A DNA stretch of 64,000 bases from a virus (IMGVR_UViG_3300008469_000001:23922-87921), one strand, 5' to 3'; shown: positions 19,403-44,116, counted from the stretch's first letter. Program-made: numbers and translations. Notes: a model not told the origin generated them from the letters alone.

Positions 19403-20044
19403 TTAGTTATTTTTTAAAAAATCAATCAAAAGTACATATGCATATCCTATAGAATGCGGTTTTTTATATCTATATTTACCATCATCTCTACCCAATTCCT
19501 TAAATTGTTCATCAAAAACTGGTATACCATAAGTTTCTCTTAGAATTTTTTGAGCTTCTTCTGATTTCTTTTTCAATAGTTTATCAGTATGAATATAATT
19601 TTTCATCTTATCATAATTAGCTACGGAACCAGGTCTAATCAACGCTAAAATAATAGCAATGTCATTTACAGATGAAACTTTAAACTCTCTAAGAATACCA
19701 GGATACTTACTCAATTGATATGGTTCATCATATTCCCACAATGTTGACCATTGGATATTTTCATTTTCTATCAGGTGTATATATTGTATTAATTCATCTG
19801 AGGATATATCATCCAAATAACTATTATTAAGAATATCAATCTTTTGAAAATGATTTTTTTCCATTGATTTATAATCTATAACAGCTAAATCTTGATAAGC
19901 TGGAATTGATTTATAAAAATAAACGCCAGCTGGATGAGGTTGATAATCTCCTCTATCATTCAAAACAGAAGCCCTTAACAAACCATTTCTAATTTCATCT
20001 GAGTCCTTTGCAGGTATATCCAAATCTAAATCTGAAAATTTCAT
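19403..20044 (-). CDS. Miniature DNA polymerase III alpha (DnaE)-like nucleotidyltransferase
   Basis: 213 aa with DnaE motifs in order: SDLDLD, HPAGVY, KIDIL, ALIRPG, ILRETYGIPVFDEQ, YKKPHSIGYA; no PHP, OB or clamp-binding regions. Confidence 0.75.
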   Translation of the reverse strand: MKFSDLDLDIPAKDSDEIRNGLLRASVLNDRGDYQPHPAGVYFYKSIPAYQDLAVIDYKSMEKNHFQKIDILNNSYLDDISSDELIQYIHLIENENIQWSTLWEYDEPYQLSKYPGILREFKVSSVNDIAIILALIRPGSVANYDKMKNYIHTDKLLKKKSEEAQKILRETYGIPVFDEQFKELGRDDGKYRYKKPHSIGYAYVLLIDFLKNN

Positions 20045-20091: not shown

Positions 20092-21939
20092 TCAATCTAA
20101 GTCCGGATTCACATCTAAAGTTGAAATCCCCCTAGATTTTGTAACTAAAATAACTTCTTTTGATTTTTCTTTTATCTCTTCTCTGTGAGAAATCATATAT
20201 ACTCTCATCTTTTCTTGTTTTGCAACATTTTTGATAAAGTAATATACAGATTCTAATAATGTACCATTGATACCACTATCCAAAACTTCATCCATAAACA
20301 GTGCATTAAATTCAACATTATTTTTTAGTTTAAACACTTTCATAAGTGCCAACATAATCATAATATTACCAATCCTTTTTTCACCATTTGAAAGAGTACC
20401 TGATGATACCTCTTTACCAAGCTTCATAATTCTTATTGTGAAATCTGGATTGAATTGTAAATGAATGTTAAAATCAGGAATCAATTTTTTAAAGTTTTTG
20501 AGTATTTCATTTGATTGTTTGATAAATTTTCTTAGAAATTTTCCTCTTATTTTTTGATCATCATTCTGTTTTATAAATGATTTAAACAACCTAACATTCT
20601 CTGAAACCCTATCAATCTCAGTCATATCTATGTTTCTAATTAACTTTGAATTAGCTTCTATTTCTGATAAGAAATGGTTGTCTTGACCTTCAATATTTGT
20701 TAATTCATTTTCTAGATTTTTAACAACAATATCAATATTATCAAGTTCTTTCTTATCAACTTTTGTTTCAACTTCTTCCATTGCTTCTTTTATTTCAGAT
20801 AATAATTCTCTTTTATCAGAAATGGAATGTTTAAGTTGTTTTTTACCTTTATCATGATCGGTAATACTTTTTTCATATATAAGAATTTGTTTTCCATAAT
20901 CAGATAATTTTTTATCACTTTCTGTTATAGCTGTTGCATCTTCCCAATCTTGATTACAAGTAGGACAAATATTACCCTTTAAACTAACATTCTTCTTTTC
21001 TTCTCTTTCATATTTCTCAGATAGAATTTCTATTTCTCTATCTTCTTTATCAATAATGGATTGTACATCTTTTAAATCACTTCTTAATTCAGTAATTGTT
21101 TCTGTCAATTTCAATTTATGTTCTTTCAACTCATCTAAAAATGAAAATTTATCAAGTTCTTCTGCAACATTAACTGTGGTGTAATATTCAATAGATTCAA
21201 CTAAACTATCGATTTGTTTTTTTCTTCTTCTCTCAAATTTTTCTGACGATTCATTTAATCTTTCTAACTGGTGGGTTATTTGTTCATTTGCATAATTAAT
21301 TTCTTTTATACTTGATTCTAATTCTGTTAATTTTATTGTATCATCTCTTACTCTATCTTTAACATCTGTAGCCATTTGATTAGCAGCTTCAAAACTAAAT
21401 ATGTTTTCAAGAACTTTCTTTTGATCACCCGGTCTCATATTCAAAAATGGTTTATTATGCTCACTTGCAACTGAGAATAAAGTAGTTTGTAGGAAGGTTT
21501 CATATTTCATTCCAACAATAGATTCAATAAGATTATTGTTATCTCTTATGTCTGCTTTTGAGATATTGTCCCAAGTATCTTCTACATTTTCAACTGTTTC
21601 AACTTTTTTATAAAGATTAAGAATGTTTGGTTTTCTTCCTCTTTCAACTTTAAAACTGTGTTTATCAATATCAAATTCTAAAGTAACTACACAGTCTTTT
21701 CCTTTTATATAATTAACAACCTCATTAGCTTTAACATTTGATACAGTTTCACCATATAGTGCAAAAGTTATACCAGCAAATATAGTTGATTTACCTGTTC
21801 CAATTTTAGCACCTTCAGTATCTTTATCAATTCCATCAATAAGTATTACTGTAGAACCAAACTCATTAAATTTCAGTTCTTGTTTACTTCCATAACTATA
21901 AAAGTTTTGCAATTCTAATTTTCTAAATTTAACTTTCAT
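20092..21939 (-). CDS. gp46: Recombination endonuclease ATPase subunit (T4 gp46 / SbcC / Rad50-like)
   Basis: LQNFYSYG, Walker A GTGKST, coiled coil with CPTC zinc hook, signature LSNGEK, Walker B LFMDEVLD, ISH. Confidence 0.93.
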   Translation of the reverse strand: MKVKFRKLELQNFYSYGSKQELKFNEFGSTVILIDGIDKDTEGAKIGTGKSTIFAGITFALYGETVSNVKANEVVNYIKGKDCVVTLEFDIDKHSFKVERGRKPNILNLYKKVETVENVEDTWDNISKADIRDNNNLIESIVGMKYETFLQTTLFSVASEHNKPFLNMRPGDQKKVLENIFSFEAANQMATDVKDRVRDDTIKLTELESSIKEINYANEQITHQLERLNESSEKFERRRKKQIDSLVESIEYYTTVNVAEELDKFSFLDELKEHKLKLTETITELRSDLKDVQSIIDKEDREIEILSEKYEREEKKNVSLKGNICPTCNQDWEDATAITESDKKLSDYGKQILIYEKSITDHDKGKKQLKHSISDKRELLSEIKEAMEEVETKVDKKELDNIDIVVKNLENELTNIEGQDNHFLSEIEANSKLIRNIDMTEIDRVSENVRLFKSFIKQNDDQKIRGKFLRKFIKQSNEILKNFKKLIPDFNIHLQFNPDFTIRIMKLGKEVSSGTLSNGEKRIGNIMIMLALMKVFKLKNNVEFNALFMDEVLDSGINGTLLESVYYFIKNVAKQEKMRVYMISHREEIKEKSKEVILVTKSRGISTLDVNPDLD

Positions 21940-22038
21940 TTAAACTCTCTTTTTACCTTTCAAAAATGTCTTTTCAACACCTTTTACATAATTATACATT
22001 AATCAACTTTTTTACCCTTATTAATAAAGGATTAAAAT

Positions 22039-23097
22039 CTACTCTTGGTAAGAGTTAGATAATTCCTTTAAAAATTTTATTGCTTCTTGGTCTTCATCAA
22101 CTTTTTCGGTTGTTACTAAATTATCAATAACATAATCTGTATATGATTGATTTTCTAATTTATTAGATGTTTCTTCATCATCTTCATCATCAAGATCATC
22201 TAAATCATCCCAAGGTGACATTTGATCATCAAGAACTAAATCATTTATTCCATATTCTAAAATCAATGATGTTTTAAATTCTTCCAATTCACTATATTTG
22301 TATTTCTTATCAATAACTAATTTAAGATTATCTCCTTGATTAAATACTGTAGTTAATTCATCTTCCATCTCTTTCAATACTGACATTTTGAATTTATACA
22401 TTCTAGGGTGTTGGTACTCAATAAATTCATCTTCACCATTTTCACAATCTAATATAGTCCATCCTCTCTCATCATCATCTTCACCATAAAAAAATCTACA
22501 CAAATTTCCAATATATGCTATTTTACCTCTTGATTGTCTTTTATGAAAATGTCCCATAAACACTTTATCATAATTTTTTGTAATTGCATTTGCATTAAGA
22601 CCTTCTTCAGCTTTAACAAATTGGTTTAGCATAAAACCTTGTATTTCAATGTGACCCATTAAAAAGTTTGCATGTGGGAATTCATGTCCTTTCATTATTT
22701 CATTTGGAAAATAAGGTAACATATAAAATGTATTATCATGAATTTCTAGTGTTTTAGGTTCATCTACCAAATGAATATTTGGATAACCAGCAAATATATG
22801 TAGGTTATGTCCATTTGAATCATATGTTTTTTTTGACATGTCATGATTACCAACCAATATATATACATTATCAAATGTATCATTAATTTTAATAAATGCT
22901 TGTGCTAGATAATTTAAGGTTGAAGTGGATATTGATTGTTTTACATCAAGTGTATCACCTAAATTGATCATTGTAGTTATACCATTTTGTTTCGCATGTT
23001 CACATTGTTCATAAATACCTTTAAGTATAATATGGTCAAATTTACCATTTGATTTACCAAAGTGCCAATCGGTACTAATTGTAATTTTCTTATTCAT
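22039..23097 (-). CDS. gp47: Recombination endonuclease nuclease subunit (T4 gp47 / SbcD / Mre11-like)
   Basis: Metallophosphoesterase motifs TDWHFG, LGDTLD, VGNHD, MGH, GHFH. Confidence 0.93.
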   Translation of the reverse strand: MNKKITISTDWHFGKSNGKFDHIILKGIYEQCEHAKQNGITTMINLGDTLDVKQSISTSTLNYLAQAFIKINDTFDNVYILVGNHDMSKKTYDSNGHNLHIFAGYPNIHLVDEPKTLEIHDNTFYMLPYFPNEIMKGHEFPHANFLMGHIEIQGFMLNQFVKAEEGLNANAITKNYDKVFMGHFHKRQSRGKIAYIGNLCRFFYGEDDDERGWTILDCENGEDEFIEYQHPRMYKFKMSVLKEMEDELTTVFNQGDNLKLVIDKKYKYSELEEFKTSLILEYGINDLVLDDQMSPWDDLDDLDDEDDEETSNKLENQSYTDYVIDNLVTTEKVDEDQEAIKFLKELSNSYQE

Positions 23098-23426
23098 TCA
23101 TAATTGCCTTTCATCAAGAATATATATTGATATATATTATACAAAATTTAATCAGTAATAATTTCATAGAAAATCATATACAATTTGACATTAATATAAT
23201 GGTGTAATTTTATCATAAATTCTTGTGTGAAAATCAAACATAATTATGACCTAAATTATAAGTGTATTTCAAATCAATTTTTTTAAAAAATAAATTCAAT
23301 GGCTATGCCAGAGGACGAAGTCCAAGGTACGAAGTACTATATCTATCTTTATATCATATTTAGGCACTTATAGCGGACAATTCACTAGGCAATAATAAGG
23401 GGGTTTATAGCGACACCCCAAAAAAA

Positions 23427-23998
23427 TCGTGTAAGCTTTGTGGAATTGTCGTGTAAACTTTGTGAAAGCATTTTTTCACCTTATTATTAAGGTCTTAAAA
23501 TGCGAAAAAAAAGGCATGTTTTAACTCAAAAAATTTTTCTGATGTTTTTAGGGTACTAAATAACTCAAAATTTGAAGTTGATTAATTTTAAGTTTTTTTT
23601 AAGGTGATGTTTTAACTCAAAATTTGAACTTGATGAATTTTCTAAAAACAGTAGTGTATATAGTAGTTCGAGCAGTCTTATCGTGTAAGTCTTGTGGAGT
23701 TAAATCGTGATTGTAACCAAAAGTTTCTCTATTTGTAAATAACTCAAAATTTGAACTTGATGAATTTTCAAAAATAACTCAAAATTTGAACTTGATGTAT
23801 GAGGGTTTTTTAACTCAAAAATAAAAGTTGAGTTATTTAGACCTATTTTTCTTATAAATAACTTAGAAATTAAAAAATCGTGTAAGTCTTGTGGAGTTTA
23901 AAATTTATTTAGTAAAGTCTTAAAACACCTTATTAATAAGGTATTAAATAAAATCACCATTTGATAAATGTTAAAAAATCGTGTAAGTCTTGTGGAGT
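23427..23998 (+). repeat. Iteron-like direct repeats, family A (TCGTGTAAGTCTTGTGGAGT)
   Basis: Identical 20-mers at 23681, 23878 and 23979; variants at 23427 and 23449 (22 bp apart); half-sites TCGTGATTGTA at 23705 and 24005. Confidence 0.8.
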
Positions 23999-24083
23999 TT
24001 AAAATCGTGATTGTATAATAGGGTATACACGATAATTTGATAAGATTTCCAATGTAAATAACTCAACTTTTATTTTTGAGTTA
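23522..24083. repeat. Quasi-palindromic repeats, family B (TAACTCAA-N9-TTGA..)
   Basis: TAACTCAAAATTTGAACTTGATG at 23613, 23740 and 23775; variants at 23522 and 23561; perfect-armed TAACTCAA-N9-TTGAGTTA at 23811 and, inverted, at 24059. Confidence 0.8.
23927..23942. repeat. 16-bp perfect palindrome ACCTTATTAATAAGGT (one-mismatch copy at 23478-23493)
   Basis: Read directly from the sequence; binding protein unknown. Confidence 0.65.
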
Positions 24084-24135
24084 TTTTCTAAATCTATAGA
24101 ATTATAAAAAAAACTTATAAAAAAGGTATTAAAAA

Positions 24136-25467
24136 ATGACAGTAAAAACAACAAAAAAATCACTCCAAAAATCGGCTGGTTTGAACCTAGAATTGAAGAA
24201 ACCATCTCAACTTTGTCAAGTACTATTTTATAAAGATTTCAACAAGGAAGAATATGCAAATCTTACACCATTACAAATTGATATTATCAATGTAACCTTT
24301 AGATTTGTTTCTGATATTATGGAAAAACAAGACTTAACTAGAGAAGAATTATTTGAATGGGCTAACTTAAATCACTTTGAAATAAATTTACAATCGATTT
24401 CTGATGTTCTTGGTAGATATAAGAATGGATATTATGAACCAATAGTACATAATTTACAGGAATTAACTAAAATTCAGGTTTTAACAAATACTCTACACAA
24501 GAATAAAACACAAGAATCAATTTTATTTCACTTTATTAGAAAGATAAGTTGGTTAAAAGACAAACAAACAACCAGTAAAAGAGTTAAAGTTTGGATTGAA
24601 CCAGAACTTTTATCAATGTTTTTAAATCTCAAAGACTATTACAGTAAAATGTATTTACCTATTCAATTAGGTCTTAAGTCCAAATATTCTAAACTATTAT
24701 ATGAAATTCTTAAAGATTATTCTAAATTAAAAGAGATAACTTTAGATTTTGATATGTTGAAAGCATTACTTAATGTTGATGTAAAAGAGAAACCTAGTTT
24801 AGATGCTTGGTCTAATTTTAATAGAGATGTATTAAAAAAAGCTGTTAAAGAAGTTTCTGAAAAATCAGATATTAAAATTGAGTATACTCCAATAAAAGAA
24901 AAATTAGATAAAAAAAGTGAAGTAACTAAAATTAAATTTACTATGAGGAAACAAAGATCTATATTAATTGATGAAGATGATATTGATGAAATGTCATTAG
25001 ATACACATATTGTTTCTGATGATGATGTTAGAACAAAAGAGTTATCAGCTGAAGATATTAAATATATTGAATTAGCACAACAAAGGTTAGATGATGCTAA
25101 AGTATTTGGAACTCAGATAAAAAATGAACAAGCTTATTTAGAAACCATAATTGAAAATCTTAAAAAAGAGAAAAAAGATATTCCAAATATGCTTCTTATA
25201 GATGATATTATCTTAGAATTAAGAGAAGCTTTTGAAGAATTTAAAAATAATAATAACCAACTTATTGTTTTAGAAAATATTGATTCGTATCCAGTTGTTT
25301 CTATTAGTAGTGAGTATTTACTATATTCACCAGTAGATAAATCTAATATTACGAAAAGTGTTGAAGAAACAATAAATAAGATAAATAAATTCAAAACAGA
25401 AGATGGGAAATTTAATATTATTGAGACTCCAGCAAAAATAAAGGAGCTTGATATTTCTTATCTTTAA
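24136..25467 (+). CDS. repB: Plasmid replication initiator protein, Rep_3 / RepB family
   Basis: LTPLQIDIIN, LKSKYSKLLYEILKDY, LKALLNV, FNRDVLKKAVKEVSEKSDIKIEY..KIKF are characteristic Rep_3 winged-helix motifs; iteron-like repeats upstream. Confidence 0.88.
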   Translation: MTVKTTKKSLQKSAGLNLELKKPSQLCQVLFYKDFNKEEYANLTPLQIDIINVTFRFVSDIMEKQDLTREELFEWANLNHFEINLQSISDVLGRYKNGYYEPIVHNLQELTKIQVLTNTLHKNKTQESILFHFIRKISWLKDKQTTSKRVKVWIEPELLSMFLNLKDYYSKMYLPIQLGLKSKYSKLLYEILKDYSKLKEITLDFDMLKALLNVDVKEKPSLDAWSNFNRDVLKKAVKEVSEKSDIKIEYTPIKEKLDKKSEVTKIKFTMRKQRSILIDEDDIDEMSLDTHIVSDDDVRTKELSAEDIKYIELAQQRLDDAKVFGTQIKNEQAYLETIIENLKKEKKDIPNMLLIDDIILELREAFEEFKNNNNQLIVLENIDSYPVVSISSEYLLYSPVDKSNITKSVEETINKINKFKTEDGKFNIIETPAKIKELDISYL

Positions 25468-25488
25468 TATATAATATGGAGCGCAGAT

Positions 25489-26460
25489 ATGGGAAACAAT
25501 ATGAATGAAACGCAGATTGTAACTGATATAGAACAGAATACAATCTTGAATATAGACCCAAGTATTATTAGTGAAAACAAAATGGCTATTAATCTATTTG
25601 GTGAAGATTTATCTGAGATGGCACCAGCTATTAATGAAAATTTCATTAGATTGATACAAAATTTTTATGGTGAATCTTCACCGCTTAATCCATTAATTGG
25701 TCAACAATGGTTAAATAAAGAAGATAATATTTTGTATAGATGGATTGGTAACAATTGGGTTCAAACAGAAAGAGATAACACATTTGATTCATTTATGTTT
25801 GTTATGTATAACATTGGTGATACTAGTGAATTTGTTTTAGATGAATTTGTATTTAACTTTACTATTGAAAATATCAAATTATATAATCAAGATATGAATG
25901 ATGTTAAATTTGTTATTGACCCATTTGATTCTAGAAAGATAATTTTAAAAGAATCAAATATAACTACATTATATATAATGGTATTTCATCCAGAAGATAG
26001 AATTACAAATCCTTTTAAAAACAGAAAAGTTGAAATTTTTACAGAATCCGGACAAACCCAATTCGATATTGAATCATTTTTATTAGGTTCAGATATTAAT
26101 ACTCTGAGTGTTTCATTAAATGATGTAATGTTAAAAAATAATGAATTTACTGTAACTAATAATATATTAAGTATAAATGGTATGATTTATAGAGTTAGGG
26201 AAAATGATAAATTAACAATTTGGAAACATGGTGGAAGTTTGTCTTCATATTATTCAACATTTACTACAACTGTTAATTCTAGAGAAAGTTATGTTAGAAT
26301 ACCAAAGTTTTTCAAAAATATTATGACTATGGAAATTTTAGATTTAGATACAAATACTATTATTAATCCTATTGAAGTTAATGAATTTGATGACTATTAT
26401 CACTTTGAGTTTTTAGATAAGAAAAATATTAAGATTAATTCTAAAATAAGAATTATATAA
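25489..26460 (+). CDS. Putative virion structural protein (baseplate / fibre-associated)
   Basis: INENFIRLIQNF..PLNPLIGQQWLN and SGQTQF..VSLNDV motifs typical of structural proteins of large myophages. Confidence 0.65.
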   Translation: MGNNMNETQIVTDIEQNTILNIDPSIISENKMAINLFGEDLSEMAPAINENFIRLIQNFYGESSPLNPLIGQQWLNKEDNILYRWIGNNWVQTERDNTFDSFMFVMYNIGDTSEFVLDEFVFNFTIENIKLYNQDMNDVKFVIDPFDSRKIILKESNITTLYIMVFHPEDRITNPFKNRKVEIFTESGQTQFDIESFLLGSDINTLSVSLNDVMLKNNEFTVTNNILSINGMIYRVRENDKLTIWKHGGSLSSYYSTFTTTVNSRESYVRIPKFFKNIMTMEILDLDTNTIINPIEVNEFDDYYHFEFLDKKNIKINSKIRII

Positions 26461-26471
26461 GGAGAGTTAAA

Positions 26472-26867
26472 ATGGTATATCCTTTTGTAGCTAATAAAGT
26501 TGAACAATTAGAATTAGACCCAATAAAAAAAGTAGATGGGTATATATGGTATAATACAGTTGAAAAAGTTTATAAAACATGGGTTGGAAATACAATTCAA
26601 ATTTTCATTACAGACTTTAGTTTTGGTCAAAATGTTGATGAGATGGTGCAGGATAAACTTGATACTAAACAATTTACTGTTGGATTTGATTCTGTATATA
26701 GTTTGATTATAAAACATAATAAAAATTCACATTTCTTTAATTACACTATTTTTGACACTATTGATAATGTTCAAATAAATTCATCAGTAGAAATTATTAA
26801 TGATAATGAAGTTAAAGTTGACTTTACAGATCCAGTAACTGGTCATATTTTTATGTATTTCCAATAA
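26472..26867 (+). CDS. Putative virion structural protein
   Basis: GYIWYNT plus a C-terminal IKHNKN..EIINDNEVKVDF..VTG domain, similar to the fibre N-terminus and the C-terminus of the next ORF. Confidence 0.6.
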   Translation: MVYPFVANKVEQLELDPIKKVDGYIWYNTVEKVYKTWVGNTIQIFITDFSFGQNVDEMVQDKLDTKQFTVGFDSVYSLIIKHNKNSHFFNYTIFDTIDNVQINSSVEIINDNEVKVDFTDPVTGHIFMYFQ

Positions 26868-26922
26868 TAATAATAAATTGAATAAATAAATAAAAATATA
26901 ATCTAGGGGAAAGGATATTAAC

Positions 26923-28527
26923 ATGATTAAAAGTAAATTACATAATCCAATAATTGCAAATAATTCACACATTGAAAATGCAGTTGTAGAAAAAGTAAAC
27001 TTAACAAATGAAAAAGTGTTCTCAGATTTGGGAAATGCAACACCAATCGTACCAGAAACTGGTAGAGTTTGGTTTAATACTGAATCAGGAACATTTAAAT
27101 TTGCTAATATAGGTTTAGGTGGAGATGGTGAAAATTTTGTAGATGAATTTTTATCTAAAACAGATTTAAGACCTCAAACAGTTGATTCAAAAGTTGATTT
27201 TAAAGATACTGTTAAAGTATTAAATACAGATGGAAGCGAACAATTAGTTATTGATTCTACAAGTAAAATTTTAACTATTGATAATTCTATCGCTGTGCAA
27301 GTAACAAGTGATAATATCACAACAAATGTTATTGGTAAAGTATCGGTGACAGATGGGACAAATGATAAAATTGTTGCAGATAATACAGCTAATTCATTTG
27401 ATTTAAATTATAATACTATAAACACATTAGGTCAGGATGTAAAGTTTACATCATCAAACTCTGTAGTTATAAATGATGGTGTTTCTGATAAATTTATTAT
27501 TGATAACAGTAGTGATAGTGTAACATTGAGTTATGCTACTGTAACTGCTAATACTACATCAACAACATTAAATGCAACTGATACAACTTTTAATGTATCA
27601 AATACATTAAAATTAACAGATGGGACAAATGATAAAATAGTTGCAGATAATACTAATAACGCATTAAATGTTACATATGCTGAAACTACTGTAACAGGTA
27701 ATGCAACAGTTGATGGTAATATGGTTGTAACTGGTGATTTAACTGTAGGTGGTCAAACTACTAAGGTTGATGTTGCCTCTGAAAGTATGGTAATCGCAGA
27801 TAATGTAGTTGTATTGAATAGTAATTTAGATGATACAGTTGATCCTAGGTTAGCATCTGCAATTGTTGATGGTACAGATGTAGATCATGATGCAGGTATC
27901 GCTATTAATAGAGGTAGTGAAGGTATTTTAGATTTAATTAAATGGTTAGAGTCAACTGATACTACTACAACTGAAACTTTAAAAGAAGGAACAGCAAATA
28001 TTTCTATATGGAATTATGAAGCTGCAACACCTGCTTATGAATTACACCAAATCATTGATGAATATACATTAGGTAGACAAGTTAATGGTTTGTCTGGTTC
28101 TGGTTGGGTTGGTTACGATGGTGAGATTGGAACTAATTATGCTAATGCAATTGGTGCAGGAGCAACAGATGGTGAAGCATCAGAATATGCATTTAAAATT
28201 GATGCCGGAAAGCTAGATGATACAATTGATCAAATTGTTCAAGAAATAGATACTGTTAAATTTGATGGTATGAATTCTGCAAGAGTTGGTGAAACACCAT
28301 CTGCTGGAACAGAATTTGTAATAACTCATAACTTAGGTACAGTATTTGTTGATGTCAAAGTTCAAAGAGAGGAAGATAGTAATTGGTATTATGATGTATT
28401 ACCGATTCAAATTATTGATGCTAATACAATTAAAATTGTTGCTACTGAAACAACAAAAATAAGATATATGATTTCTGCTATTCAAGGGTTTGATGTTAAT
28501 CAAGCAACCGAATTAACAATTTCTTAA
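26923..28527 (+). CDS. Putative tail fibre / fibre-anchoring structural protein
   Basis: 534 aa; GRVWFNT, repeated TDGTNDKIVADNT, one GDLTVGG..DNVVVLN..AGIAINRG..W module shared with the long fibre, C-terminal THNLG domain. Confidence 0.7.
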   Translation: MIKSKLHNPIIANNSHIENAVVEKVNLTNEKVFSDLGNATPIVPETGRVWFNTESGTFKFANIGLGGDGENFVDEFLSKTDLRPQTVDSKVDFKDTVKVLNTDGSEQLVIDSTSKILTIDNSIAVQVTSDNITTNVIGKVSVTDGTNDKIVADNTANSFDLNYNTINTLGQDVKFTSSNSVVINDGVSDKFIIDNSSDSVTLSYATVTANTTSTTLNATDTTFNVSNTLKLTDGTNDKIVADNTNNALNVTYAETTVTGNATVDGNMVVTGDLTVGGQTTKVDVASESMVIADNVVVLNSNLDDTVDPRLASAIVDGTDVDHDAGIAINRGSEGILDLIKWLESTDTTTTETLKEGTANISIWNYEAATPAYELHQIIDEYTLGRQVNGLSGSGWVGYDGEIGTNYANAIGAGATDGEASEYAFKIDAGKLDDTIDQIVQEIDTVKFDGMNSARVGETPSAGTEFVITHNLGTVFVDVKVQREEDSNWYYDVLPIQIIDANTIKIVATETTKIRYMISAIQGFDVNQATELTIS

Positions 28528-28680: not shown

Positions 28681-28725
28681 AAATTGAAAATAAAAAAACA
28701 ATCTTTAACTATAAGGAGAAATATA

Positions 28726-42625: not shown

Positions 42626-44116
42626 ATGGAATTACTTAATGAAAACTTAAATCATTATCTAGGTGAATCTGGAAATGGATATGGTTCACAAATGAATGAA
42701 AGTGCTACTCCAATGTGGATGTCATATATGGAAGCATTTACTCAATTTGTTGAACAAAGTGGTAAAAGATTAGAAAGATATGAAACATATGAAGAAATGG
42801 ATAGATACCCTGAAATACATCTAGCATTAGATATTATTTCTACAGAGATATTTGTATTTGATGCATTGATGAATACCCCATTCTTAATTGGAACTGATGG
42901 TAAAGTACCAGAAAATATCATAACAAAAGCAGTTAGTCAATTTACTGATAAACTAAAACTTAAAGAGATTTTACCATTTGCTGTCAGACAATCTCTGAAA
43001 TATGGAGACTCATTTTATTTTGTAGTGAGGGATACTAATAAAAAGATGGCTGGGTTAAGAAGAATTGAAAATAAAGATATTGATTTTATTGAATATGATG
43101 AAGTTGGAATTGAACCTCTTAATTATTATATTGCTAAAAGTAAAATTGATGAGGCTCATATGGGTAGCTATTTAGCATTTTTAAAATTTCAAAATTTAGA
43201 AAAAGCATCTGAACAGAAAATGGCAGCAATAGCTTCAAATGAGGGTGAGGAATTTTATGTTATTCCTAGAAAATCTATGGTAAGATTTATGAATAGAGGT
43301 CAGAATTCAAAGTTTTTTCCTTTTGGAGAATCATATTTAGAATCTATTTTCCCTTACTGGAAAAAAGTATCTTTATTAGAAGATTCGTTGATTATCTATA
43401 GAATAGTAAGAGCACCTGAGAGAAGGGTTTTTTATATTGATGTTGGTAAAGCACCTGCAAAAATTGCAGAAAAAGTTGTATCACAAACTAAAGATGAGAT
43501 TAAGAGAAGAAGAACTGCAGCTACACAAGAAAATAAGGATTTAGGTATTGCTTCATCATTCAATCCATTATCAATGCAAGAAGATTATTTCTTTGCTCAA
43601 AGAGCAGATGGTAGAGGTTCAAGAGTCGAGACATTACCTGGAGCGTCAAATTTAGGCGAAATAGCAGATGTTCACTATTTTTATAAGAAATTGATTGCTG
43701 GAATGAGAGTTCCATCATCATACTTTAATAGTGAGAATCCACCAACATGGAATGATGGTAAAGTTGGTAGTGCTTTAGCAGAAGAAGCTAGATTTGGTAA
43801 ATGGTTGACAGAAATAAGGGAACAATTCCTATGGGATTTTAAAATTTTGTTTCTAGACTTTTTAAATGAAAGGGGTATAAATATAACTGAAGACCAGTTA
43901 GATATGAAATGGAAAGAATCTATTAATGTAGCTGAAAACCAAGAGTTAGAGAAAATGATTCAAAGACAATCAGTATTTACTGGATTCCCTTTGGAACAGT
44001 TTGCTCCTACATTTTTACAGAAGAAAGTATTGGGGTGGTCGGAAGAAGAAATTCAAGAAAACATGACACAATTAGTAAAATGGCAAAAATATAAAGATAA
44101 CAATAACTTGATGTAA
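42626..44116 (+). CDS. gp20: Portal vertex protein (T4 gp20-like)
   Basis: LLEDSLIIYRIVRAPERRVFYIDVG, LSMQEDYFF..RGSRVETLPG..NLGEIADVHYF. Confidence 0.96.
   Translation: MELLNENLNHYLGESGNGYGSQMNESATPMWMSYMEAFTQFVEQSGKRLERYETYEEMDRYPEIHLALDIISTEIFVFDALMNTPFLIGTDGKVPENIITKAVSQFTDKLKLKEILPFAVRQSLKYGDSFYFVVRDTNKKMAGLRRIENKDIDFIEYDEVGIEPLNYYIAKSKIDEAHMGSYLAFLKFQNLEKASEQKMAAIASNEGEEFYVIPRKSMVRFMNRGQNSKFFPFGESYLESIFPYWKKVSLLEDSLIIYRIVRAPERRVFYIDVGKAPAKIAEKVVSQTKDEIKRRRTAATQENKDLGIASSFNPLSMQEDYFFAQRADGRGSRVETLPGASNLGEIADVHYFYKKLIAGMRVPSSYFNSENPPTWNDGKVGSALAEEARFGKWLTEIREQFLWDFKILFLDFLNERGINITEDQLDMKWKESINVAENQELEKMIQRQSVFTGFPLEQFAPTFLQKKVLGWSEEEIQENMTQLVKWQKYKDNNNLM

Follow-up and report, generated by a model that had tools for sequence, protein, structure and literature searches.

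What does a replication initiator of the Rep_3 family, with an iteron-bearing region beside it, do in the genome of a phage that has T4-type virion genes? The question is raised by a 64,000-nt stretch of DNA (hereafter the window; positions are counted from its first letter), which comprises bases 23,922–87,921 of a linear 87,921-bp viral contig in IMG/VR (IMGVR_UViG_3300008469_000001) with a CheckV completeness of ~30%. Between a gp47-like gene and a run of virion genes, the window contains an intergenic region followed by rep, an open reading frame (ORF) of 443 amino acids (aa); together, the two are called ori-rep here. An earlier note on this DNA took ori-rep for a plasmid replicon that may allow the phage to persist as a large plasmid prophage. 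Our analysis leans, with moderate confidence, towards a different answer, namely that ori-rep is a native, functional origin-plus-initiator module that most likely starts replication of the phage genome during infection rather than serving the maintenance of a plasmid prophage.

The rep ORF is intact, as the earlier note had stated, and is, by sequence and predicted fold, a Rep_3 initiator. Both winged-helix domains of this family are recognized well above their Pfam cut-offs (Rep3_N/WH1, PF01051, 36.8 bits versus 22.4; Rep3_C/WH2, PF21205, 43.4 bits versus 21.1), and the same two domains exceed the gathering score in all 17 aligned homologues. The profile of these 17 homologues, when compared with PDB sequences using hmmsearch, matched the π protein of plasmid R6K (2nra) with an E-value of 1.3e-8. 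An AlphaFold (AF2) model of Rep was obtained with a predicted local distance difference test (pLDDT) score of 72.8, and the top Foldseek matches to this model were RepE54 (E ~2e-7, target template-modelling score ~0.70), a nucleoprotein complex of Rep with iterons and the DNA-unwinding element, π and RctB. The chain consists of an N-terminal motif, WH1 (residues ~30–165), WH2 (~175–272) and a clade-specific C-terminal domain (~300–443), the last of which is well predicted in the model; the N-terminal motif, ELxKPSELCQV, is invariant across paralogues. No structural or Pfam counterpart was obtained for the C-terminal domain (298–443): VIA-align gave helical-hairpin matches alone, with Z below 6, and Atlas gave leads only, with scores of 0.80 or lower. 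The leads included the RepB/RepA C-terminal families, an identity that was rejected as no Pfam match to them was found in any of the 17 aligned homologues.

The 1 kb upstream of rep is indeed rich in iterons, as had been proposed. Five copies of a 19-nt iteron, TCGTGTAAGTCTTGTGGAG, are accompanied by six quasi-palindromes of the layout 8-9-8 (TAACTCAA-N9-TTGA..., hereafter family B), and exact motifs of both families are confined to positions 23427–24083 in the 64 kb, with a chance expectation of 0.00–0.05. From gp47 towards rep, the region presents a conserved TATCTATC box, an A-run, a pair of iterons, a palindrome, quasi-palindromes, two more iterons, the rep promoter and a leader hairpin (Table 1). 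Comparison of six orthologous loci (the window and contigs L002, L003, L004, L043 and L044) shows that the iteron pair with the preceding A-run is present in all six. Throughout these loci the iterons have constant YYGWG and TTGTG flanks around a central 7 nt that is lineage-specific and identical among the copies within a genome. The arms of family B co-vary by lineage as well, from AACTCAA/TTGAGTT to CCCTCAA/TTGAGGG in L044 and ACCGCAA/TTGCGGT in L043. The leader palindrome at 24059 forms, with 23811–23839, a 29-nt inverted repeat of 100% complementarity, and the leader hairpin has equivalents in L043 and L044. Between the two records that are compared most directly, G001 (L003) and G002 (L004), the iterons are 100% identical and a central block of the region is identical, while the spacers have diverged.

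A putative rep promoter, TTGTGG (23990–23995) and TATAAT (24014–24019) separated by 18 nt, was read from the sequence; a scan with the sigma-70 consensus, in which the number of sites was no higher than in shuffles, did not call it. The TATAAT element is conserved in four of the six orthologous loci. Since the fifth iteron overlaps the proposed -35 element, it is a candidate site of autorepression. A further palindrome, CCTTATTAATAAGG, has three copies in the 2 kb around gp47 and the origin region and none elsewhere in the window, and its form CCTTATTATTAAGG is conserved in all six origin regions. The palindrome CCTTATTAATAAGG is also found in two places in G003, a related record described below: at a gp47 junction that lacks rep (L034:10280-10473) and in a rep cassette between the portal and tube genes. 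This palindrome could serve as a site for a regulator or form a hairpin that does not depend on Rep. No Rfam match was obtained in 22900–24300, and the conserved block at 23305–23430 yielded no consensus structure in RNAalifold, whichever strand was used.

The order gp46, gp47, origin region, rep, three ORFs and sheath gene is common to five other contigs, L002 (18.8 kb), L003 (the record G001, 289,880 bp, 87% complete), L004 (the record G002, 172 kb), L043 (155.6 kb) and L044 (39.7 kb), the names of which point to several different data sets and the Rep proteins of which are ~60% identical. The gp47 gene, which reads away from the origin region, is its left neighbour in these five contigs too, and gp46 is syntenic in L002, L003, L004, L043, L044 and G003. 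In a tree of Rep proteins the six copies at the gp47 slot form one clade with support of 100/99; on this evidence, the copy at this slot has been inherited vertically in the six contigs. Sequence divergence between G001 and G002 (ratio of nonsynonymous to synonymous substitution rates, dN/dS, 0.045 at dS 0.49) indicates that rep is under strong purifying selection. The composition of ori and rep (GC content 0.25) equals that of the neighbours (0.24–0.27), and no insertion sequence (IS), att scar, transposase, endonuclease, target duplication or terminal repeat flanks the cassette within the window, in agreement with what the earlier note had observed on composition and scars. That note had also placed rep 21 bp from a co-oriented structural ORF: the distance is correct, and the label rests on weak PHROG matches to 'virion structural protein' for the ORFs at 25489 and 26472 (E 3e-5 and 8e-4, respectively). 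The ORF at 26923 has no family match. All three ORFs are syntenic in all relatives and follow gp47 directly at the G003 junction that lacks rep. One short contig of X2, ~93% alike, spans the junction of rep with the next ORF, in a contig set too fragmentary to give usable evidence on depth or junctions.

Beyond these loci, Rep_3 genes are diverse. An exhaustive HMMER search yielded 1,194 representatives at E < 1e-3 and 39 at E < 1e-10; close Rep homologues lie on contigs of 155–496 kb, the closest on contigs of 346,973, 264,683 and 496,182 bp. In IMG/VR a scan with the single sequence gave no matches and an alignment-based scan found relatives; among INPHARED phages neither a DNA-level search nor tblastn with Rep at 1e-5 gave a match. 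One or two Rep genes are present in all long records of the clade, and each paralogous rep is accompanied by an iteron array distinct from the others. In the collinear record G003 (306 kb), whose capsid protein shows 83% identity, gp47 is separated from the following ORF by only 194 bp; one Rep protein of G003, with 37% identity, is encoded between portal and tail tube (L035:12651-14606 = G003:66651-68606), genes that are 78 bp apart in the window, and a second at 185.8 kb. The cassette between portal and tube has three tandem 32-nt iterons and a pair of 68-nt repeats. Close relatives lacking rep, a prospect raised in the earlier note, are thus represented in part: G003 has no rep at the gp47 slot but has two other Rep_3 genes elsewhere. 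In L057 the slot beside gp47 holds a Rep that the tree places in a different clade, and Rep genes are in tandem or clustered in L046, L048/L070 and L052. The homologue P0047 (552 aa; L052:1583-3241; NCBI contigs of up to 29,691 bp), encoded directly after another Rep gene, is a fusion of Rep_3 with a T5orf172 domain (PF10544). By its extra C-terminal domain and invariant N-terminal motif, the module defines a phage-specific Rep_3 subfamily, in which expansion has given rise to several paralogous clades, each with iterons to match. In the papers searched, neither Rep_3 nor iterons were found to be described for jumbo or T4-like phages.

On the basis of these data, a mechanism can be proposed. 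Transcription of rep would start at the host-type promoter (TTGTGG-18-TATAAT), and Rep monomers would bind the five 19-bp iterons (YYGWG-N7-TTGTG), with one winged-helix domain per half-site. The resulting nucleoprotein complex would open adjacent AT-rich DNA and recruit a helicase, for which the C-terminal domain specific to the clade and the invariant motif at the N terminus are candidate surfaces, while Rep on the promoter-proximal iteron would repress its own gene. This theta-type start would then be handed over to the T4-style machinery of the phage and to recombination-dependent replication; the genes for gp46 and gp47 adjoin the element. Origins that combine an initiator with iterons are classical in lytic replication, as in the case of lambda O and ori-lambda. 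If the proposal is correct, ori-rep offers a concrete, testable candidate origin for very large uncultivated phages.

Several considerations weigh against a role of ori-rep as the origin of lytic replication. The start of replication at this region is itself a prediction from sequence, and both the position and the copy number of the cassette vary between sister lineages, which would not normally be expected of a single, essential origin. Rep_3 initiators are most familiar as plasmid proteins, and on plasmids they use the DnaB helicase of the host, often via DnaA; no DnaA box with up to one mismatch is present in the origin region, and in the window such boxes do not exceed chance. The minimum of the GC skew falls on ori-rep in G001; however, it falls on the gp47 junction in G003 as well, where there is no rep, and thus tracks gene orientation, so that we rejected skew as evidence of an origin. 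No DnaB_C, AAA_25 or gp41-type helicase was found in G001–G003 (61–87% complete), whereas G005 has one; the replicative helicase gene of the clade may sit in the missing parts of the records. Finally, the records are at most 87% complete, and a partition or repressor gene could lie in a missing part or be too divergent.

Three other explanations have to be weighed. That ori-rep is an artefact, either a plasmid fragment misassembled into phage DNA or a decaying relic, might be thought of because the contig is a linear, largely incomplete metagenome fragment, but both junctions recur in five other contigs from apparently different data sets, and rep is intact in all of them and constrained. Given the conserved synteny and a composition equal to that of the flanks, misassembly is excluded for practical purposes, and we consider the artefact vanishingly improbable; the element is native, with no chimeric junction of the kind that the earlier note had envisaged. 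A different possibility is that ori-rep is a semi-autonomous, mobile or exchangeable cassette that biases replication to its carrier or hinders co-infecting relatives by iteron-specific incompatibility, without being an essential origin. The absence of the ~2.4-kb unit from the gp47 slot of G003, with other Reps elsewhere in that record, fits this idea, as do the Rep of another clade at the same slot in L057, the tandem and clustered genes, the T5orf172 fusion, the variation of iteron cores among lineages and the frequent homing endonucleases of G001. Nevertheless, the mobility genes and terminal structures that were looked for beside the cassette in the window are missing, the copy at the gp47 slot is vertically inherited, and the retention of at least one Rep in every long record is expected for a needed function; a competitive cassette therefore seems quite improbable to us.

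The remaining alternative, a phage-plasmid or carrier state, holds that a Rep_3-iteron replicon keeps the ~300-kb genome as a low-copy episome (plasmid prophage or pseudolysogeny), with T4-type virions produced on induction. The combination of Rep_3, iterons and a self-repressed promoter is the classic one of a theta replicon under copy-number control, rep is conserved and selectively constrained, and virion genes and Rep_3 occur together on one contig here and in relatives. Pseudolysogeny has been discussed for jumbo phages (PMC7824862, section 3.4.10), which also counts for this explanation. Against it, six records, three of them 85–87% complete, were searched with families for which positive controls matched (AAA_31, ParB_N, tubulin, Phage_integrase, Resolvase and Peptidase_S24): there was no match to AAA_31 ParA, ParB_N or tubulin, to the tyrosine or serine recombinase families Phage_integrase and Resolvase, or to Peptidase_S24, the search for repressors covering those of the S24 type only. 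A search for StbA/ParM found nothing, but its control was silent as well. A low-copy episome of 300 kb would be expected to require active partition. In a PHROG scan of 50 large ORFs of G001 no repressor or recombinase was seen, apart from one IS-type transposase (L098:5791-6981, phrog_506, E 5e-78). Among the 72,556 plasmids of PLSDB there is no capsid homologue and the Rep matches are remote only (no more than 46% of the query covered, at 26–36% identity), and in 185,579 species genomes (one per species; GTDB) there is no relative, a single remote match from Lachnospiraceae excepted; the listed holders of the sequence are metagenome runs only. G001 encodes a split PolB, a gp44-like clamp loader, NAD ligase, ribonucleotide reductase, topoisomerase II, thymidylate synthase and homing endonucleases, a replication and nucleotide-metabolism set that, by sequence, is the equipment of a virulent T4-type phage, and the nearest cultured relatives, which are devoid of Rep_3, were isolated as lytic phages. 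Since these absences come from incomplete genomes, and about half of the large G001 ORFs scanned have no PHROG match, so that maintenance genes are possible, the episome is weakened only; we regard it as unlikely, and persistence as a plasmid prophage, the central suggestion of the earlier note, did not find support in the partition, recombinase, repressor, plasmid and species-genome searches. A plasmid replication gene in a phage is insufficient for calling it a phage-plasmid. A broader scenario, in which a clade of ~300-kb T4-superfamily phages replaced or supplemented R-loop origins with diversifying, moving Rep_3-iteron replicons that, in at least some members, enable the whole phage to be kept as an episome in dividing cells (as a carrier state or a phage-plasmid of the T4 class), strikes us as distinctly unlikely. 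If the episomal reading were nevertheless true, it would be the first case of an episomal state in a T4-class phage.

The replication genes of these records have features of their own. PolB gave only sub-threshold Pfam matches in G001–G003, and PHROGs revealed the polymerase pieces: homology to PolB (phrog_262, phrog_1918) in G001 is found in separate ORFs, at least two in number (267 and 384 aa), ~20 kb apart (L085:4449-5252, L086:5479-6633), and the main polymerase may thus be split too. Searches for gp45 (DNA_PPF) and gp59 found nothing, with controls that were silent as well. A minimal DnaE-type polymerase is encoded by two small genes ~23 kb apart, both conserved in G001–G003, and such a split minimal Pol III α has already been described as a hallmark of the jumbo phages of group 2.2 (Iyer et al. 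2021, PMC7824862, section 3.4.1).

The ori-rep module resides in an uncultivated T4-superfamily jumbo phage, related records of which reach 290–306 kb. The genes flanking ori-rep match T4-type PHROGs (phrog_138, 213, 207, 23, 4542, 219, 150, 218, 227 and 429), with gp46/gp47 on the left and, to the right of rep, genes for sheath, baseplate hub, a gp2-like end protector, a 2,568-aa tape-measure-like protein, portal and tube, along with prohead protease, major head protein, head closure and a gp6-like wedge. The core morphogenesis set of T4 (gp23, gp20, gp21, gp18, gp19, gp6 and related) is present, which places the phage in this superfamily. With the major head protein as query, 2,588 phage records were matched, headed by GAP32-, EJP2-, CBB- and XaC1-type jumbo phages (33% identity), so that by capsid protein the GAP32/EJP2-type phages are the nearest cultured relatives. 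The T4-type surroundings with late promoters, described in the earlier note, are borne out by these matches and by TATAAATA boxes, the T4 late-promoter consensus, upstream of 11 genes that include those of major head protein, portal and sheath. The overall count of such boxes is at chance level, and half of them fall in the small intergenic fraction, 4–135 nt 5' of genes; the box at 23853 is an exception in that it lies inside the origin region, with no gene start within 150 nt. The portal protein of the window (42626–44116) has 496 aa, while those of G003 and G004 have 1,055 aa (L035:9460-12627; L007:11176-14343), with 341 aa alignable at 75% identity; the longer form could be due to an intein, an inserted domain or a fusion. 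The recorded origin is a sediment metagenome, the probable source run, together with a second run that has a small share, and there is no RNA run among the holders. This sole record of origin lends no support to the campylobacterotal host guessed in the earlier note.

Table 1. Coordinates of ori-rep, its neighbours and other features of the window
Feature	Position	Strand	Remarks
gp46-like SbcC recombination nuclease subunit	20092–21939	-	phrog_77, E 3.7e-83
gp47-like SbcD nuclease	22039–23097	-	phrog_100, E 8.9e-59; Pfam Metallophos
Origin-like intergenic region	23098–24135	.	Repeat families; element order kept in six orthologous loci
Iteron pair A1-A2	23427–23467	+	TCGTGTAAGCTTTGTGGAA and TCGTGTAAACTTTGTGAAA, starts 23427 and 23449, 22 bp start to start
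Iteron A3	23681–23699	+	Exact TCGTGTAAGTCTTGTGGAG; then short repeat AAATCGTGATTGTA at 23702–23715
Iteron A4	23878–23896	+	Exact copy; aligns with an iteron in 6/6 loci
Iteron A5	23979–23997	+	Exact copy; overlaps proposed -35 of rep promoter
Family B quasi-palindromes	23561, 23613, 23740, 23775; 23811–23835	+	The one at 23811–23835 is perfect
Perfect family B palindrome, rep leader	24059–24083	+	TAACTCAACTTTTATTTTTGAGTTA, then TTTTC
Palindrome CCTTATTATTAAGG / CCTTATTAATAAGG	23479–23492, 23928–23941 (origin region); 22016–22029	.	3 matches versus 0.05 expected
rep (Rep_3 initiator, 443 aa)	24136–25467	+	Pfam, fold and PDB sequence match
Three co-oriented ORFs after rep	25489–26460, 26472–26867, 26923–28527	+	Lead into tail sheath gene at 28684
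DnaE finger piece and second piece	19403–20044; G000:C1:19609-20115 (outside window)	- (window piece)	PF17657 and PF07733
TATAAATA boxes	23853, 28673, 32443, 32475, 42590, 47330, 61400	+	
TATAAATA boxes	1708, 18603, 19328, 32407	-	
Giant ORF, 2,173 aa	5571–12092	-	Tail-fibre-like repeats
Giant ORF, 2,568 aa	34879–42585	+	Tape-measure similarity confined to middle part
Giant ORF, 2,860 aa	52054–60636	+	

Compared with known systems, Rep resembles RepE of mini-F, π of R6K and RepA of pPS10 in the succession of WH1 and WH2 and in having both Pfam Rep_3 domains, with RepE54-iteron complexes providing the fold match and π the sequence match. As in the Rep_3 iteron plasmids, the region has direct repeats of 19 bp (the iteron class is 17–22 bp) beside the gene; a further likeness would be the overlap of one of them with the putative rep promoter. 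It differs from these plasmids in that it sits in a phage of ~300 kb, in the addition to Rep of a conserved C-terminal domain (~140 aa) and of an invariant N-terminal motif without known counterpart, in the dispersal of the iterons over 570 bp, interleaved with quasi-palindromes, and in that no DnaA box and no partition genes were found here. The phage-plasmids P1 (RepA/oriR with ParAB), the SSU5 group and N15 are likewise tailed phages with a plasmid-type initiator and iterons. They have partition systems, immunity repressors and often recombinases, and are found as plasmids in isolates, whereas the partition, repressor and recombinase families searched here were not found and PLSDB holds no relative; to our knowledge, no phage-plasmid of the P1, SSU5 or N15 kind has a T4-type virion module.

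The group 2.2 jumbo phages, of the GAP32 type (PMC7824862), are alike in the core genes of the T4 paradigm, in PolB and in a minimal DnaE split into two distant genes, but GAP32, EJP2, CBB and XaC1 have no Rep3_N match, and a term search of Iyer et al. 2021 (PMC7824862) returned no mention of RepA or of an origin initiator. T4 itself belongs to the same virion and replisome lineage, and in the window gp46/gp47 adjoin the element. The origins of T4 (oriF, oriG and others) fire through R-loops from middle-mode transcripts, after which recombination-dependent replication takes over, and we know of no T4-type phage with a dedicated origin-binding initiator; the clade described here, in contrast, has a protein initiator with iterons. 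A conserved Rep_3-iteron module across a jumbo clade of the T4 superfamily would represent a different way to start replication in this lineage. The functional analogy that we favour is with lambda O and ori-lambda, where a phage initiator binds repeats beside or within its gene and recruits a helicase for a lytic theta start, although Rep belongs to the Rep_3 family, with no match to a phage O-type family, and would act in a jumbo T4-type myophage with a polymerase of its own.

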